From: a virus
Taxonomy: Duplodnaviria > Heunggongvirae > Uroviricota > Caudoviricetes
Length of the DNA: 64,000 nucleotides
Virus record (IMG/VR): IMGVR_UViG_3300000517_000001
Direction: 5' to 3' (one strand)
Numbering within the stretch: the first letter of the stretch is position 1; every line of letters begins with the position of its first letter. Under the pieces are notes generated by a model. It did not search any database and was not told where the DNA came from. It saw only the letters and a list, made by a program, of their open reading frames with translations. The translations under genes and the position numbers were made by a program. This document shows positions 38,799 through 57,883 of this stretch, piece after piece.

Positions 38799-39734
38799 TT
38801 AGTCGTCAGTGAGACCTTTGAAGAACGACAGATCGTCATCGTCGTCATCACTTGTCGAACCAAAATCCGGAGAAGGAGCTTCATCCATTGTTTTCGGTGC
38901 GCTTTCCTTGAACTTCGGAGTGAAGTCCATCTCCGGCTCGTCATCCTCGGCGGTATGTGTGGGTGCGTGGGAACCACCGTCAAGCGCAAGAACTTTGTAA
39001 AGCTTCGCTTTGAGTTCATCATACGACTTGAAGTTTTTAGGATCGACGATTTCCTGCAGAGAATGCTGGGAATTCCAAATGGACTCCATTTCCTCGTCTG
39101 TCATCGCAGAGCCATCAGGCTTAGTGATTGGACCAGGAGCAGAAAACTCTGACTTATCATAGTTACGATAACCTTCAACATTACGAGCTTTCAGTTTGAA
39201 ATCTGCACCTTCCCAGAAGTCAAACGGATTAACAGCTTCTTCATCCTCGAATTGAGGGTTCATCATGTCATTCAGCTTATCGAAAATTTTCTTACCAAAC
39301 TTGTACTTGAAAACCTTGCCTTCGTTTTGAGGATTTGCAGGATCCTTGACAACATAGACATTGGCATGGAAACCAAGACGGCGCTTCTGTTTGCGGGCGA
39401 TGTCTTTATCTGATTCGACACCAGAATTCCAAAGTTTACTATTGTATTCAGAAACGGGGTCATCTTGACCAATAGTGGTAAGAGAGTTTTCAATGTACCA
39501 ACCACCAGGACCTTGGAAACCATGGTCCCACATACGAACAAATGGCATGTCTTCACCCTGAGGCGCAGGAAGAAAACGAAGCACAGCATAACCATTGCCG
39601 GCTTTGTCGACTTCGAGCTTCCAGTAGTCATCATCGCCAGATGGGCCGGAAGAGTTCATAGATTGTAGTTGGGAATTGAGCTTATCAAACTCTTTAGAAC
39701 GAGCTTGTTTTAGTGCGGAAAAAGAACTTGGCAT
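38799..39734 (-). CDS. 32: single-stranded DNA-binding protein gp32
   Basis: WKLEVDKAGNGYAVLRFLPA parallels T4 gp32 [20 protein letters not shown]. Acidic C-terminal tail (DDDDDDLSFF). Confidence 0.85.
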   Translation of the reverse strand: MPSSFSALKQARSKEFDKLNSQLQSMNSSGPSGDDDYWKLEVDKAGNGYAVLRFLPAPQGEDMPFVRMWDHGFQGPGGWYIENSLTTIGQDDPVSEYNSKLWNSGVESDKDIARKQKRRLGFHANVYVVKDPANPQNEGKVFKYKFGKKIFDKLNDMMNPQFEDEEAVNPFDFWEGADFKLKARNVEGYRNYDKSEFSAPGPITKPDGSAMTDEEMESIWNSQHSLQEIVDPKNFKSYDELKAKLYKVLALDGGSHAPTHTAEDDEPEMDFTPKFKESAPKTMDEAPSPDFGSTSDDDDDDLSFFKGLTDD

Positions 39735-39789: not shown

Positions 39790-39818
39790 ATATTAACTTG
39801 TATACTTAAATTTGTCAA
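39790..39818 (-). promoter_or_regulatory. sigma70-like promoter for gene 32 (TTGACA-17-TAATAT)
   Basis: Minus-strand TTGACA (39818-39813), 17-nt spacer, TAATAT (39795-39790). Lies within the 3' end of gene 59. Confidence 0.4.
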
Positions 39819-40392
39819 CCACTATTTTCCTCATCTTATCTTTGTCATACTCTAGAAATGGCTTGTAATTCAGCACGAAACTATTTATATGTGGGAACAT
39901 GATTTTTTCATGAATTTTTTTGTCCCAGTAAATAAAACATTTTGTCAAATCATCGAGTATCACAAGGGTTTCTGGACTAATTTTTTCTTGCATATACAAT
40001 GTAAGCAAGCGTGGATGTTGTCCGTTATCAACCACAATGTTTGAGTCGAAATTATCATTCAACTCGTTTAACTCACGCTTAAAATTATACGTGAGAGCCT
40101 GTATTCGTTTAGCCCATGCGACATAGTTTTGATGCGCTTTCTCTTCAAGCATATCACCAATCCATATCGAGGGATCAACGATCATATTAGCAAGAATAAG
40201 CTCTTTTGCTTCTGATCTTTTTGAAAGCTTATAGAAAAAGAACTTATCTTTTCGATTCTCAAAGCTTTGGACATTAGCTTTGATTTTGCCATTATACTTG
40301 AAGAAATCATAATTAGAAGTAAAATGACGTTTCATTGCAAGATAGTATACATAGATGTCATAAGCATCTCGAGTACTATAAAGTTTTGTCAT
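39793..40392 (-). CDS. 59: helicase-loading protein gp59
   Basis: RKDKFFFYKLSKRSEAKELILANMIVDPSIWIGDM parallels T4 gp59 RRDKYFFQKLSEKYKLKELALIF...AWIGDI. 59-32 order as in T4. Confidence 0.75.
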   Translation of the reverse strand: MTKLYSTRDAYDIYVYYLAMKRHFTSNYDFFKYNGKIKANVQSFENRKDKFFFYKLSKRSEAKELILANMIVDPSIWIGDMLEEKAHQNYVAWAKRIQALTYNFKRELNELNDNFDSNIVVDNGQHPRLLTLYMQEKISPETLVILDDLTKCFIYWDKKIHEKIMFPHINSFVLNYKPFLEYDKDKMRKIVVDKFKYTS

Positions 40393-40685
40393 ACTGGCAA
40401 CCTTGCGGTTTTCTCCATTAGTCGAAGTCGTTCAGCATCTTCACGAACTTTTGCTTTTAAAATAGGTGAACGCTTTACAATATCACCAATGAGTTCAATT
40501 TCAATTTCATTTTTTTGAGCATAATGCACAAGAGCATCCATGAGTGTTACATCTTCATTTACCCATGGACTTACTTCTTTTAATATTTGCTCTGCTTTGA
40601 GGTCTTCAATTTTATCCATTGAGATTTTTGATTCCTGCTGCCCAATTTTGTGCTGCACTTTCGACCCAATGTACAGATTTTCCAT
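40389..40685 (-). CDS. hypothetical protein (98 aa)
   Basis: ORF coupled to the gp59 start. Confidence 0.4.
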   Translation of the reverse strand: MENLYIGSKVQHKIGQQESKISMDKIEDLKAEQILKEVSPWVNEDVTLMDALVHYAQKNEIEIELIGDIVKRSPILKAKVREDAERLRLMEKTARLPV

Positions 40686-40824: not shown

Positions 40825-41441
40825 TTTACCATAAATCCAATTCTTGCGGGTTTGATGAAACCATCAGCATCATCAAAACTCTCTATATAACTATAACCCA
40901 TACTTTCGTAAATGTCAATCAAATTGACTGGATCATCCTCGAATATAGGAACGAGCTCATCATATTCCGGATCAGGAGTATCTCTTAGATGTACTTCGAT
41001 CACTTTATCACCTATGAATTCTATATTGATTAAAGGTAAGTCTGATAACTCATTAAGTTTACGTGGAACTGCAGGAGCATAATTAGTTCTTTTCCACCAC
41101 ATGAATCGAAGCTCTAGTTTACTCGCTAACCAACAACTCTTAAGTTGCCATCCAACCAAATGTTTCCAAGTAAATGTAGCCGAGTAATGATCGCCTTCAA
41201 ACCATTCGCACCAAAAATATCCAGGTGGGACTTGTGTTACATCTCCGGCTTTGATAAACTTTTTATGAGCACCTGCACTCATCCCAGAGAGGTTGTAAAT
41301 CGGTCTGATGATATAATAACCATCACGATCTGGAGCTACACCACAGGGGCCACAGTAGTGTCCTAGAAGGTTAGACACATAAAGCTTATTGAACCATTTA
41401 CGATATTCAGGATATTCTTTCCAAGCTTCATGATCTTCCAT
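40821..41441 (-). CDS. hypothetical protein (206 aa)
   Basis: ORF with AACGGAG RBS. Trp/Cys-containing (HYCGPCG). Confidence 0.5.
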   Translation of the reverse strand: MEDHEAWKEYPEYRKWFNKLYVSNLLGHYCGPCGVAPDRDGYYIIRPIYNLSGMSAGAHKKFIKAGDVTQVPPGYFWCEWFEGDHYSATFTWKHLVGWQLKSCWLASKLELRFMWWKRTNYAPAVPRKLNELSDLPLINIEFIGDKVIEVHLRDTPDPEYDELVPIFEDDPVNLIDIYESMGYSYIESFDDADGFIKPARIGFMVK

Positions 41442-41454
41442 AATATACTCCGTT

Positions 41455-41824
41455 GTTAAGTGAGCCCGTTCTGTTGCCCGGTGGAGCTCATACCGCGTAG
41501 ACTCAAGCTGCGAGTGCTACAGGTTCTGCGTTAATGTTTGCAGTTATTAAGATGCGACTATTACGCGTTCGCCTCCGATAGTCTCCACGTTCCCTTCCGC
41601 ATACGTCGATCCCAATTCACCCCCATCAAAGATACACTTTAAGCTTCAGAGTGTCGGACTCGAACCGACATACCCTTCTCTGATATTCAGAAACACAGAA
41701 CGTTACAATGTTCCCTTAGTTGGCCAACTAGCTTATAAAGGTTGCGGCGCCTTTAAGTGTATCCGTGGTGGAGGTGCGGGGTTTCGAACCCCGGTCCGTC
41801 CTACGTCCAGTCAGTTTCACCGAC
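41455..41824 (-). ncRNA. ssrA: circularly permuted (two-piece) tmRNA gene
   Basis: On the minus strand the order is: acceptor piece, intervening segment, coding piece. The acceptor piece ends ...CGGGG-TTCGAAA-CCCCG-CACCTCC-A-CCA (canonical T-arm, 7-nt 3' acceptor strand, discriminator, CCA; plus 41765-41792). About 140 nt downstream lies GGGGGTG-AATTGGGATCGACG (plus 41624-41604), a perfect partner for CACCTCC followed by the tmRNA D-analog consensus (cf. GGGGCUGAUUCUGGAUUCGACGGG). Then comes a tag reading frame. ORF-free. Confidence 0.55.
41503..41541 (-). other. tmRNA tag reading frame ANINAEPVALAA-stop
   Basis: GCA AAC ATT AAC GCA GAA CCT GTA GCA CTC GCA GCT TGA on the minus strand. Typical AN...ALAA degradation tag. 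Resume-region AATAGTCGCA-like sequence just upstream. Confidence 0.5.
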
Positions 41825-42051
41825 TACAATATATTTATACCATAAAAACTCTTTAATGTCAACAAGATAAACACGCAACCAAGTATACCCATAAAAATAT
41901 GTTTTGCATTTTCAATATCTATACCAAACGATGTAAGAACAGCAACAGAAAAAACAGTTAGAATATAACTTGTAAGAATTGATAATGGGATATTAACCGT
42001 GATCATAGCGACGTAGTTTCTCTTCGCGCCCTTCTCTTTGACCATAGCCAA
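41824..42051 (-). CDS. small membrane protein (75 aa, 2 TM), holin-like
   Basis: Two hydrophobic helices. Charged N-terminus. Confidence 0.4.
   Translation of the reverse strand: MAMVKEKGAKRNYVAMITVNIPLSILTSYILTVFSVAVLTSFGIDIENAKHIFMGILGCVFILLTLKSFYGINIL
41831..41838 (-). promoter_or_regulatory. T4-type late promoter TATAAATA upstream of the tmRNA locus
   Basis: Minus-strand TATAAATA (plus-strand tatttata) about 7 nt before the start of the structured RNA region. Confidence 0.4.
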
Positions 42052-45726: not shown

Positions 45727-45835
45727 TGCCTAGCAGTAAAGTTTTAGCACCACACTTTTGAAAGGTAAATGCAAGCATACCTACAGAAACTATAAACCAA
45801 ATTACTGCAACGACGTAAACCCATCCAGGTACCAT
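45687..45835 (-). CDS. small TM peptide (49 aa)
   Basis: MVPGWVYVVAVIWFIVSVGMLAFTF... single TM. Below the ORF-track size cut-off. Confidence 0.3.
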
Positions 45836-45847
45836 TTTATTCTCCTA

Positions 45848-45940
45848 TGAAACCGCGATAAAAAAGAGAAGAAACATGAGAGCCCAATAACCCACATAGA
45901 GGATAATAGCAATCTTTATAAGCTCCCAAATAAATCCCAT
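45848..45940 (-). CDS. small TM peptide (31 aa)
   Basis: MGFIWELIKIAIILYVGYWALMFLLFFIAVS single TM. Confidence 0.25.
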
Positions 45941-45941
45941 T

Positions 45942-46151
45942 TTACCACTCCTTGTGCCAACCCATTTTTTCGTTGTCGTCATAACCAGCCCAGTATGCGG
46001 CAAGTTCTTCCTGAGTCATATTTTCCATTTCGACTCGTTCACTCATGCCGGTACCACCGACATAGTAGTGAGGGCGAGGTGTACGACCATAGTAACTATC
46101 AGCAGAACCACGATCATACGGACCACCGTGCCGTTCATCATACTTTGTCAT
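45942..46151 (-). CDS. hypothetical protein (69 aa)
   Basis: ORF, coupled. Confidence 0.4.
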   Translation of the reverse strand: MTKYDERHGGPYDRGSADSYYGRTPRPHYYVGGTGMSERVEMENMTQEELAAYWAGYDDNEKMGWHKEW

Positions 46152-48113: not shown

Positions 48114-48182
48114 GTTGTAACTCCATTGTTAGATAGATACATTCTATCACATAAAAAAGTATATGTACAATGAAAAAAAGTG

Positions 48183-48211
48183 TTGACATTCAATAACTTA
48201 GTGTGTATAAT
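48183..48211 (+). promoter_or_regulatory. inverted copy of the early promoter family, perfect TTGACA-17-TATAAT, rightward
   Basis: tgTTGACAttcaataacttagtgtgTATAATgctattaag on the plus strand, pointing against the flanking minus-strand genes. Confidence 0.45.
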
Positions 48212-48237
48212 GCTATTAAGCTACTGAAAATAATCTG

Positions 48238-48385
48238 TTATCTTTTATACTTGGTTACGTAAAATCCTTCAGGATAATTCATTGCTTCAAGCATATCTTT
48301 AAACATTTTAGGTGTAAGCAATATCATATCAGGTACATCATCGAAGGTAGAATCATTGAACTGTTTAATGTAAACCATATCGTCT
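48238..48385 (-). CDS. small hypothetical ORF (~47 aa from first ATG)
   Basis: MVYIKQFNDSTFDDVPDMILLTPKMFKDMLEAMNYPEGFYVTKYKR, in-frame open region between the flanking genes. Start uncertain. Confidence 0.25.
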
Positions 48386-48475
48386 TCGATTATGAGTTGT
48401 ACATCTTCGAGATTACCTTCTTCATCTAGAACGGTAGTTACAGTACCTTCAAATTCAAATTCGTTAGTAAAAATC

Positions 48476-57491: not shown

Positions 57492-57658
57492 TAGATCAAC
57501 TCCCTTAGTTGTTCGGGGTCTTTTCCTATAATAGCAGCTAATGAGTCAATGGCGTCACTGATTCGAACGCCGCCCCACATCATGTTCTGATCCTGTTGTT
57601 CTGCCCAAAGCAGGAAGAACACAAGGTTAGCATAATGCTCATTCATCAAAAGTCCTCC

Positions 57659-57883
57659 TCACCACCTTGAACCTGACATCAAATTCCGATGTTCGTGAAT
57701 AATATTTTGACGTTCATTAAGAGCGACCATTGCAATGGTAGCGGAAACTTCATCGTGACTTTGCTCAGTAATTTTCAACAAAGCGTCATACATTATAGCT
57801 TCAAGTTTCCAAGCCAAATCAGCACTATTTGCTTTTTTGGTACGTTGCTGATTGATTTCAAATTGAAGATCACCGATAGACAT
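57659..57883 (-). CDS. hypothetical protein (74 aa)
   Basis: ORF. Confidence 0.35.
   Translation of the reverse strand: MSIGDLQFEINQQRTKKANSADLAWKLEAIMYDALLKITEQSHDEVSATIAMVALNERQNIIHEHRNLMSGSRW

Follow-up and report, generated by a model that had tools for sequence, protein, structure and literature searches.

A two-piece tmRNA gene of the alphaproteobacterial type in an uncultured T4-like phage

A stretch of 64,000 nt from IMG/VR virus record IMGVR_UViG_3300000517_000001, referred to here as the window, comes from an uncultured T4-like phage and contains on its minus strand a locus that a preliminary description had read as a two-piece (circularly permuted) transfer-messenger RNA (tmRNA, ssrA) gene behind a late promoter. 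The locus raises the question of whether such a gene is genuine and intact in this phage, how it is expressed and processed, and what it says about the phage and its host. We find that the two-piece ssrA is genuine and intact and that its structure is of the alphaproteobacterial type, an identification on which ARAGORN, the Rfam models RF04321 and RF01849 and covariation among relatives agree. The comparative evidence set out below further suggests, with a probability of about 0.88, that the two-piece tmRNA encoded by this phage is functional and that a clade of aquatic T4-like phages has passed the gene on at a fixed slot upstream of gp33, gp59 and gp32.

The two-piece gene and its fold

The preliminary description had proposed a permuted-mode ARAGORN search and Rfam covariance models as checks, and both returned the gene. 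When ARAGORN was run on the whole window, the single gene reported was a permuted tmRNA at 41412-41862 with the tag ANINAEPVALAA. Two Rfam matches exceeded their gathering scores: RF04321 (tmRNA_permuted) matched 41826-41503 with 93.6 bits (gathering score 47; E = 8e-17), the alignment covering the full model (positions 1-213), and RF01849 (alpha_tmRNA) matched 41866-41459 with 79.3 bits against a gathering score of 50 (E = 7e-20) and was the top-scoring member of its clan for this gene. A permissive Rfam scan of the locus gave no further families beyond these tmRNA matches.

Direct reading of the minus strand gives the permuted order of acceptor piece, 141-nt spacer and coding piece. The acceptor piece (41766-41826, 61 nt, placed by the RF04321 alignment with its 5' end taken from the promoter and the model start) consists of the P2 3'-type strands, GGAC, the T-arm CGGGG-TTCGAAA-CCCCG (41777-41793; seen by direct reading, Rfam and a motif scan), and the acceptor-stem 3' strand CACCTCC followed by the discriminator A and an encoded CCA (41766-41776; direct reading and Rfam). 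The intervening sequence (41625-41765), which would be removed on maturation, is followed by the coding piece (41459-41624, the 3' end being that of the alpha_tmRNA model match), which comprises the acceptor-stem 5' strand GGGGGTG (41618-41624; direct reading, Rfam and cofolding), a D-loop analogue, the P2 5'-type strands, the tag frame and a 3' hairpin. Directly after GGGGGTG the strand reads AATTGGGATCGACG; the D-loop analogue AAUUGGGAUCGAC follows the acceptor 5' strand, and the T-arm has its T-loop. The tag frame (41503-41541; ARAGORN and direct reading) starts at an alanine resume codon, GCA, and reads GCA AAC ATT AAC GCA GAA CCT GTA GCA CTC GCA GCT TGA from 41541 to 41503, encoding ANINAEPVALAA with a hydrophobic C-terminus and a TGA stop. 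Each of the motifs named in the preliminary description, namely the T-arm with its CACCTCC-A-CCA end, a GGGGGTG some 140 nt further on that pairs with CACCTCC through a single G-U, the D-analogue consensus and the resume-codon tag frame, was thus recovered at these positions.

Pairing between the two pieces had also been put forward as a check. When the predicted mature pieces were cofolded, the acceptor stem GGGGGUG/CACCUCC formed in trans with 7 bp (41776-41766 with 41624-41618). Its only G-U is G3·U70 (G3 at 41622, U70 at 41772), which together with the discriminator A73 constitutes the identity set for alanyl-tRNA synthetase (AlaRS), and this pair was invariant across seven aligned relatives. 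Of the P2 helices expected between the pieces, the proximal ACG/CGU and the distal UAGUC/GACUA helices are canonical in the window in the Rfam alignment, but the middle one is not formed (see below).

Because folding of the single sequence spoke only in part for pairing between the pieces (see below), the structure was assessed further by comparison with related permuted genes from other phages, including Melnitz, and from an alphaproteobacterial metagenome-assembled genome (MAG) contig, L052. In the acceptor stem, all 7 pairs were 100 % paired in the seven relatives, two of them with both sides changed, and among the closer relatives of the window described below the stems vary in a compensatory manner (CACCTCC/GGGGGTG, CGACTCC/GGGGTCG, CTGGTCC/GGGCCAG); in the T-stem pairing was likewise 100 %, with four of the five pairs altered on both sides. 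Counted over the helix columns of seven sequences, as transcribed from model-fitted alignments, 96.9 % of cells were paired, as against 39-48 % when the partners were slid by one to three columns; both sides had changed in 16 of 23 pairs, and none of 500 shuffles reached the observed values. The distal, outermost inter-piece helix was fully compensatory across six sequences in the covariance-model alignments, reading UAGUC/GACUA in the window, CAAUU/AAUUG in Melnitz, GGUAG/CUACU in L052 and GUCGC/GCGGC, GGUAA/UUACU and UAUCA/UGAUA in contigs L012, L009 and L040, respectively. These compensatory substitutions indicate selection on structure.

Several observations weigh against the reading of this locus as a functional tmRNA and have to be set beside this evidence. 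Of the P2 helices in the Rfam model, the middle one, of 4 bp, is unformed in the window and in several phage relatives. In the minimum free energy (MFE) fold of the single sequence, distal P2 gives way to a local hairpin, AGUCGGU-GAA-ACUGACU, in the 19 nt at the 5' end of the acceptor piece, and in cofolding the inter-piece interaction energy was only modestly better than that of shuffled sequences, 38 of 300 of which were equally good. In the PK1 region upstream of the resume codon, the RF04321 hairpin aligns with two non-canonical pairs, and the closest relatives are identical there, so that no covariation can be seen. The end positions of both pieces are taken from the models. A sigma-70 scan did not list the promoter described below, whose -10 element, TATAAA, is without the conserved last T, and a tblastn search of the 64-kb window with an approximate Escherichia coli SmpB query found no SmpB homologue (best E = 0.69). 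Finally, the steps of the mechanism proposed below, including expression, processing and ribosome rescue, are all inferred for this phage.

The 3' part of the gene ends in a hairpin, UGAGCUC-(CACCGGGCAACAGAAC)-GGGCUCA (41461-41490, from the fold and RF01849 positions ~325-355), with the alpha-type loop motif GGCAACAGAA; the same module is present in L052 and in the phage relatives L016 and L058. The length of this region varies: in L053, L055 and L059 the tag stop is separated from the terminal GGTATGAGCTCCACC hairpin by about 100 additional nt, which include a second ...AGAAACAGAA... module, and the window (41502-41459) and L058 are more compact here, as though they had lost one of the 3' modules. 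The tags of relatives retain the pattern AN.N...ALAA (ANINAAPVALAA in L058, ANTNAAPKALALAA in L055) with variable internal residues.

The locus had further been described as the only ORF-free, GC-rich stretch of the window. This holds for the two properties in combination, as 41442-41823 has a GC content of 50 % against a window mean of 37 % and is the sole such GC-rich stretch poor in open reading frames (ORFs), but it does not hold for the lack of ORFs alone, since no fewer than three further stretches inside the window (227-391 nt; 45727-45953, 48114-48475 and 57492-57882), as well as both window ends, are without an ORF of at least 75 aa. The last of the three internal stretches (391 nt, 41 % GC) had no Rfam match at gathering score; the sequence TGATG-TTCGAGA-CATTG, which adjoins it at ~57429 (minus strand), weakly resembles a T-arm.

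Promoter and transcription

The box TATAAATA (41832-41839, minus strand), which ends 5 nt before the first Rfam model position, was the basis for the earlier proposal of a T4-type late promoter and late expression. The box is indeed present and conserved, but it can be read in two ways at once, as the T4-type late consensus and as a -10 element (TGn-TATAAA) of the extended type (TGG), and exactly 17 nt separate it from a -35 box, TTGACA (41857-41862, minus strand), of a sigma-70-type promoter. The sigma-70 scan demands a T at the last -10 position, and the promoter was therefore judged by direct reading and conservation. In seven related phages, those of the window, Melnitz, L055, L058, L059, L016 and L053, the distance between a -35 element (TTGACA, TTGACT or TTGCTT) and TATA(A/T)ATA is exactly 17 nt, and between the window and L055 the promoter region is identical at 36 of 36 nt. 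What is conserved thus appears, from its sequence, to be a sigma-70-type promoter whose -10 element mostly also fits the T4 late consensus.

Transcription late only, from a gp55-dependent T4-type promoter with the upstream TTGACA fortuitous or irrelevant, is the alternative to be weighed here, and we regard it as unlikely. The box is a perfect late consensus, kept in six of the seven related phages, its TATAAA lacks the last -10 T that sigma-70 prefers, and 11 of the 13 such boxes in the window lie on the minus strand, in the sense of the genes; moreover, the phage encodes the late coactivator gp33, so that late use of TATAAATA is plausible. Late-only use, however, leaves unexplained why the -35 element is kept at 17 nt in all seven phages, including L053, in which the -10 element is TATATATA and not a late consensus, and why, among the 11 minus-strand boxes, TTGACA precedes that of the tmRNA gene and none of the ten others. 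The context of the -35 box, TTGACATT, is shared with most of the other canonical TTGACA-N16/17-TATAAT promoters of the window. The same layout (CTTG...TATATT) is found in bacterial alpha-type ssrA and is built into RF01849, and the tmRNA equivalent of Melnitz has been described as lying behind an early promoter (Buchholz et al. 2022, PMC9004378). Early or dual/continuous expression is therefore our better guess.

The window contains four perfect TTGACA-N16/17-TATAAT promoters, at 365 (+), 48183 (+), 49561 (-) and 52877 (-), three of them in the TTGACATT context, and these are probably the early promoters of this phage; that at 48183 sits in the 362-nt ORF-poor stretch 48114-48475, which has a GC content of 30 %. 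Upstream of the tmRNA gene, a 75-aa hydrophobic ORF (41824-42051, minus strand) runs up to the base at which the tmRNA model match begins, which places the tmRNA promoter inside the 3' end of that ORF; L055 and L057 have a gene call for a counterpart of 73 aa at this position. At the other end, the terminator scan found no terminator-like site after the tmRNA gene, and the next gene, ORF206, starts 18 nt past the end of the tmRNA model, so that read-through into ORF206-gp33 is likely.

The spacer and a proposed mechanism

In the MFE fold, the ends of the spacer pair in a closing stem, its 5' arm (GGAUACACUU) at 41755-41764 and its 3' arm (AAGUGUAUCU) at 41630-41639, the latter followed by a 5-nt leader, UUGAU, before G1 of the coding piece. 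A closing stem of 9-12 bp was present in all eight spacers folded, starting 0-1 nt after CCA and ending 4-5 nt before G1. Spacer interiors were unrelated among the eight sequences, and the TGAT leader was invariant in the seven phages and one bacterium. The lengths range from 38 nt in the bacterial L052 through 61 (L058), 74 (L059), 77 (L053), 95 (L016), 141 (window) and 142 nt (Melnitz) to 169 nt (L055), and for phage permuted tmRNAs at large from 2-5 nt up to 170 nt. The turnover is most evident between the window and its closer relatives: the acceptor piece is 95 % identical to that of L055 and 93 % to that of L058, and the coding piece, from its 5' end up to and including the tag region, is about 76 % (L055) and 91 % (L058) identical, but the spacer is 48 % and 40 % identical, respectively, where the same aligner gave 51 % for shuffled sequence. 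The spacer has thus been swapped wholesale between near-identical genes, with the closing stem re-created. Such a stem would fit a role in presenting both halves of the acceptor stem to RNase P and the 3'-end enzymes.

Within the window spacer lies a truncated tRNA-like element (41645-41699, minus strand; RF00005) with five of the seven acceptor-stem pairs, a short D-like hairpin, a perfect T-arm (GTCGG-TTCGAGT-CCGAC, 41669-41653) and a discriminator A, but with no anticodon arm. Since the tRNA and alpha_tmRNA models belong to the same Rfam clan, the tRNA match is hidden in full scans, and the spacer was therefore scanned alone; RF00005 then gave 15.8 bits against a gathering score of 29 (E = 0.56), with the anticodon arm deleted. 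Only three T-arm-like motifs occur on both strands of the window (128 kb), among them those of the tmRNA itself and of this element. ARAGORN at default settings did not call the element, and with thresholds lowered to 80 % it gave an inconsistent 97-nt 'tRNA-Arg' that bypasses the canonical T-arm; an intact tRNA was accordingly rejected, as was a conserved processing module, the element being absent from all relatives examined. Elsewhere the spacer resembled only the T-arms of genuine but unrelated tRNAs on other phage contigs. The simplest reading is that a tRNA has decayed here, or that a piece of tRNA origin was inserted where the gene tolerates it, and most likely the element is a lineage-specific passenger, dispensable for function.

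A bolder view would make the spacer a hypervariable 'cargo slot' that the tRNA-processing enzymes empty, the tRNA-like element serving as a handle by which RNase P or RNase Z severs the spacer or as the source of a stable small RNA. It is suggested by the combination of 100 % identical promoters and 93-95 % identical acceptor pieces with unrelated spacers of 61, 141 and 169 nt that have only closing stem and TGAT leader in common, and by the ORF in the L055 spacer described next, but comparative support for the processing-handle role is nil, as no relative carries the element, and we consider this view improbable. Two observations on other spacers may be recorded. The 169-nt spacer of L055 contains a 50-codon ORF (MTFRPYYAFMRVKYNKDETDIIEIEKCYLDAPETWSKEAKKALEAKGISF; L055:1646-1798, also L057:1070-1222) with a Shine-Dalgarno sequence and preceded by AAAGGAAATGATAAA, which is gene-called in the source assemblies and had no phage tblastn match and no PHROG match. 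The spacers of L008, L017 and L029 (143-170 nt) end in ...CCCTGATGAGCGTAATAGTGTATTACGGAAAG..., a sequence with a superficial likeness to the core of a hammerhead (CUGAUGA...GAAA); the CUGAUGAG...GAAA string was dropped as a candidate, no ribozyme family being matched at Rfam gathering score.

We propose that a single precursor would be transcribed from the hybrid promoter TTGACA-N17-TGn-TATAAATA, by host sigma-70 RNA polymerase early and probably with phage gp55/gp33 late, and that transcription, meeting no terminator, would run on into the downstream genes. The closing stem of the spacer would join the two halves of the acceptor stem, host RNase P would cleave at G1 (41624) after the UUGAU leader, and host 3'-end enzymes would trim to the encoded CCA (41766), freeing the 141-nt spacer and leaving the 61-nt acceptor piece and a coding piece of ~166 nt held together by the acceptor stem and P2. 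Host AlaRS would then charge the RNA by way of G3·U70 and A73, and with host SmpB and EF-Tu it would enter stalled ribosomes, where translation would resume on GCA and add ANINAEPVALAA, marking the product for host proteases. Dependence on host SmpB is presumed because none was seen in the window. The probable benefit to the phage would be that ribosomes are kept available while mRNAs are cut and host transcription is shut down.

Another function, or the lack of one, might be considered. The RNA could be mainly a decoy that titrates host SmpB or disturbs host trans-translation instead of rescuing ribosomes, for which the tmRNA of mycobacteriophage DS6A, consisting of the tRNA-like domain only and expressed in E. 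coli, offers a precedent (PMC4131195, PMC11915505), and with which the lack of a visible phage SmpB in the window would agree; but unlike that of DS6A, the present gene has a complete resume codon, tag frame and stop, and among its relatives both the proteolysis-type C-terminus ALAA and the 3' hairpin module are conserved, none of which a decoy would need, so that we hold this to be very unlikely. Least likely of all is that the locus has no function, whether as a host ssrA decaying after its capture or as the sort of attachment-site fragment found in temperate phages, for although its 3' domain is shorter than in L053, L055 and L059, the middle P2 helix is missing and a tRNA has apparently decayed in the spacer, every defining element of the tRNA-like domain is present with an intact tag frame, the changes among relatives are compensatory, the tags vary inside conserved termini, and the gene is full-length, not a 3' fragment, at a conserved syntenic position in lytic-type T4-like genomes.

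Genomic slot, host and known systems

The reading as a functional, clade-inherited tmRNA draws further on the position of the gene. In the window the order is tmRNA, ORF206, ORF70, gp33, gp59, gp32, with the gp33 late-transcription coactivator at 40389-40685 and gp59 at 39793-40392 (both identified by Pfam) and the gp32 homologue a 311-aa ORF at 38799-39734, whose identity to its counterparts in cyanophages, Sinorhizobium phage phiM12 and Methylophilales phage Melnitz does not exceed ~55 %. Among 50,697 phage records there was no near match at the DNA level beyond short gp32 fragments. The 'SsrA' tmRNA annotated in the Melnitz record lies immediately upstream of the coactivator, helicase loader and single-stranded DNA-binding protein, and the metagenomic contig L049 has the order PhoH, nuclease, tmRNA, ORF71, gp33, gp59, gp32. 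L049 came from a DNA-pattern scan of metagenomes and is identical in sequence to L016, the only closer relative returned by the corresponding scan of viral sequences; the window sequence itself occurs in neither of the two JGI collections. An exact look-up of ORF206 gave no match, but homologues of 74-81 % identity led to five closer relatives in ENA, JGI and Logan assemblies, each with an intact permuted alpha-type tmRNA in the same slot; the contigs with the three closest ORF206 homologues were too short to reach a spacer. T4-like phages that have diverged widely keep the gene at this one slot, which speaks for vertical retention over a long time, and therefore for real selective value, and against sporadic capture.

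Other features of these and further contigs were noted. Most of the close relatives have, between tmRNA and ORF206 homologue, an ORF of 109-110 aa whose N-terminus resembles a signal peptide (L055:2112-2444, L058:1194-1523, L059:1142-1471, L060:85-417, L061:119-448); one copy has a weak Porin_4 match, and the ORF is absent from the window and L053. The only DNA match to the window tmRNA in the phage database was MW677525.1 32247-32332 (Rhodobacter phage RcSimone-Hastad), with 78 % identity over the 5' region of the coding piece; this unannotated segment may be a tmRNA missed in the record. ARAGORN found tRNAs with a CTA anticodon (amber-reading, labelled 'Pyl') in the tmRNA-bearing viral contigs L019 (2767-2944), L034 (4907-4981) and L042 (1945-2020) and one with a 4-base anticodon in L014 (441-526), which may be suppressors or signs of stop-codon recoding in those phages. 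Viral contig L010 has a permuted tmRNA with an unusual tag, GGNSPLQNII, and no encoded CCA, and Rfam matches to wcaG RNA (L010:3777-3887) and abiF RNA (L010:409-445).

With regard to origin, the exact 21-mer at the 5' end of the coding piece occurs once in 185,579 species representatives, in the alphaproteobacterial MAG UBA7371, on a contig that is genuinely chromosomal (its neighbours are HflK/C, DHFR, ThyA and fumarase) and whose tmRNA also ends CACCTCCACCA. This supports an alphaproteobacterial ancestry of the tmRNA gene. The preliminary description had gone further and taken the gene to argue that the host processes permuted ssrA. That argument is weak, because permuted transcripts are cleaved by general tRNA-processing enzymes (PMC11915505), and Melnitz, whose tmRNA is of the alpha type, infects OM43, which is not an alphaproteobacterium (PMC9004378), so that an alpha-type gene does not identify the host.

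The gene belongs to a published class and locus type, that of Melnitz and related marine phages. It had been called unusual, but two-piece phage tmRNAs, though uncommon, are documented, among others in Melnitz and pelagimyophages: a survey of 18,146 phage genomes gave 133 unique tmRNA structures, 53 of them two-piece and nearly all of these marine or aquatic (Buchholz et al. 2022, PMC9004378), and one degenerate pattern scan of IMG/VR gave about 20 further permuted phage tmRNAs. The new points are accordingly modest. They are a divergent lineage of two-piece-tmRNA phages, whose gp32 shares only about 55 % identity with its counterpart in any cultured phage; a compact 3' domain that lacks the riboswitch seen in Melnitz (see below); spacer turnover with a kept closing stem, a small and testable point on what the processing enzymes need; and the tRNA-like remnant in the spacer. 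For annotation, TATAAATA upstream of such genes should not be taken to mean 'late only', and an alpha-type phage tmRNA alone should not be used to assign a host.

Among known systems the closest is the Melnitz SsrA (MZ577097, MelnitzEXVC044M_86), which like the window gene is permuted and of the alpha type by Rfam and occupies the same slot upstream of gp33-gp59-gp32, placed by its describers upstream of the coactivator; permuted tmRNAs were reported in 17 of 47 contigs of the Melnitz cluster (PMC9004378). The two share the promoter (TTGACA-N17-TATAAATATATT in Melnitz, TTGACA-N17-TATAAATA in the window), a long spacer (142 and 141 nt) with closing stem and TGAT leader, and a tag of the AN.N...ALAA type. 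However, their mature parts are only about 57-60 % identical (gp32 about 53 %), the spacer interiors are unrelated, and the window has two extra ORFs (206 and 70 aa) between tmRNA and gp33. A glutamine riboswitch (RF01739), common but not defining at the ssrA 3' end in the Melnitz group (Buchholz et al., PMC9004378), directly follows the Melnitz tmRNA, whereas none was found in the window even at E <= 10.

The two-piece tmRNAs of alphaproteobacteria (RF01849; Keiler, Shapiro and Williams 2000, as cited in PMC9004378 and PMC11915505) have in common with the window gene the gene order, the tRNA-like domain, the promoter layout and the 3' hairpin with its GGCAACAGAA loop, and in UBA7371 the identical 21-mer. 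The window gene differs in being phage-encoded, in its score (79 bits, against 180 bits for L052), in its 141-nt spacer, against 38 nt in L052, in lacking a match to the 5' hairpin and middle P2 helix of the alpha model, and in its shortened region after the tag. A tRNA-shaped element inside the spacer likewise characterizes the permuted tmRNA of GCA-2688965 sp002688965.2, the single permuted tmRNA with an intact spacer tRNA-Ala reported, and called unique, in the 2025 tmRNA database paper (PMC11915505); that tRNA-Ala is intact, whereas the window element is without an anticodon arm, scores 15.8 against 29 bits and is given no default ARAGORN call. The tmRNAs of the Bxz1 group of mycobacteriophages and of Bacillus phage G (PMC4131195), finally, are also phage-borne and, like that of the window, presumably rely on host SmpB, but unlike it they are one-piece, non-permuted and found in unrelated phage lineages.

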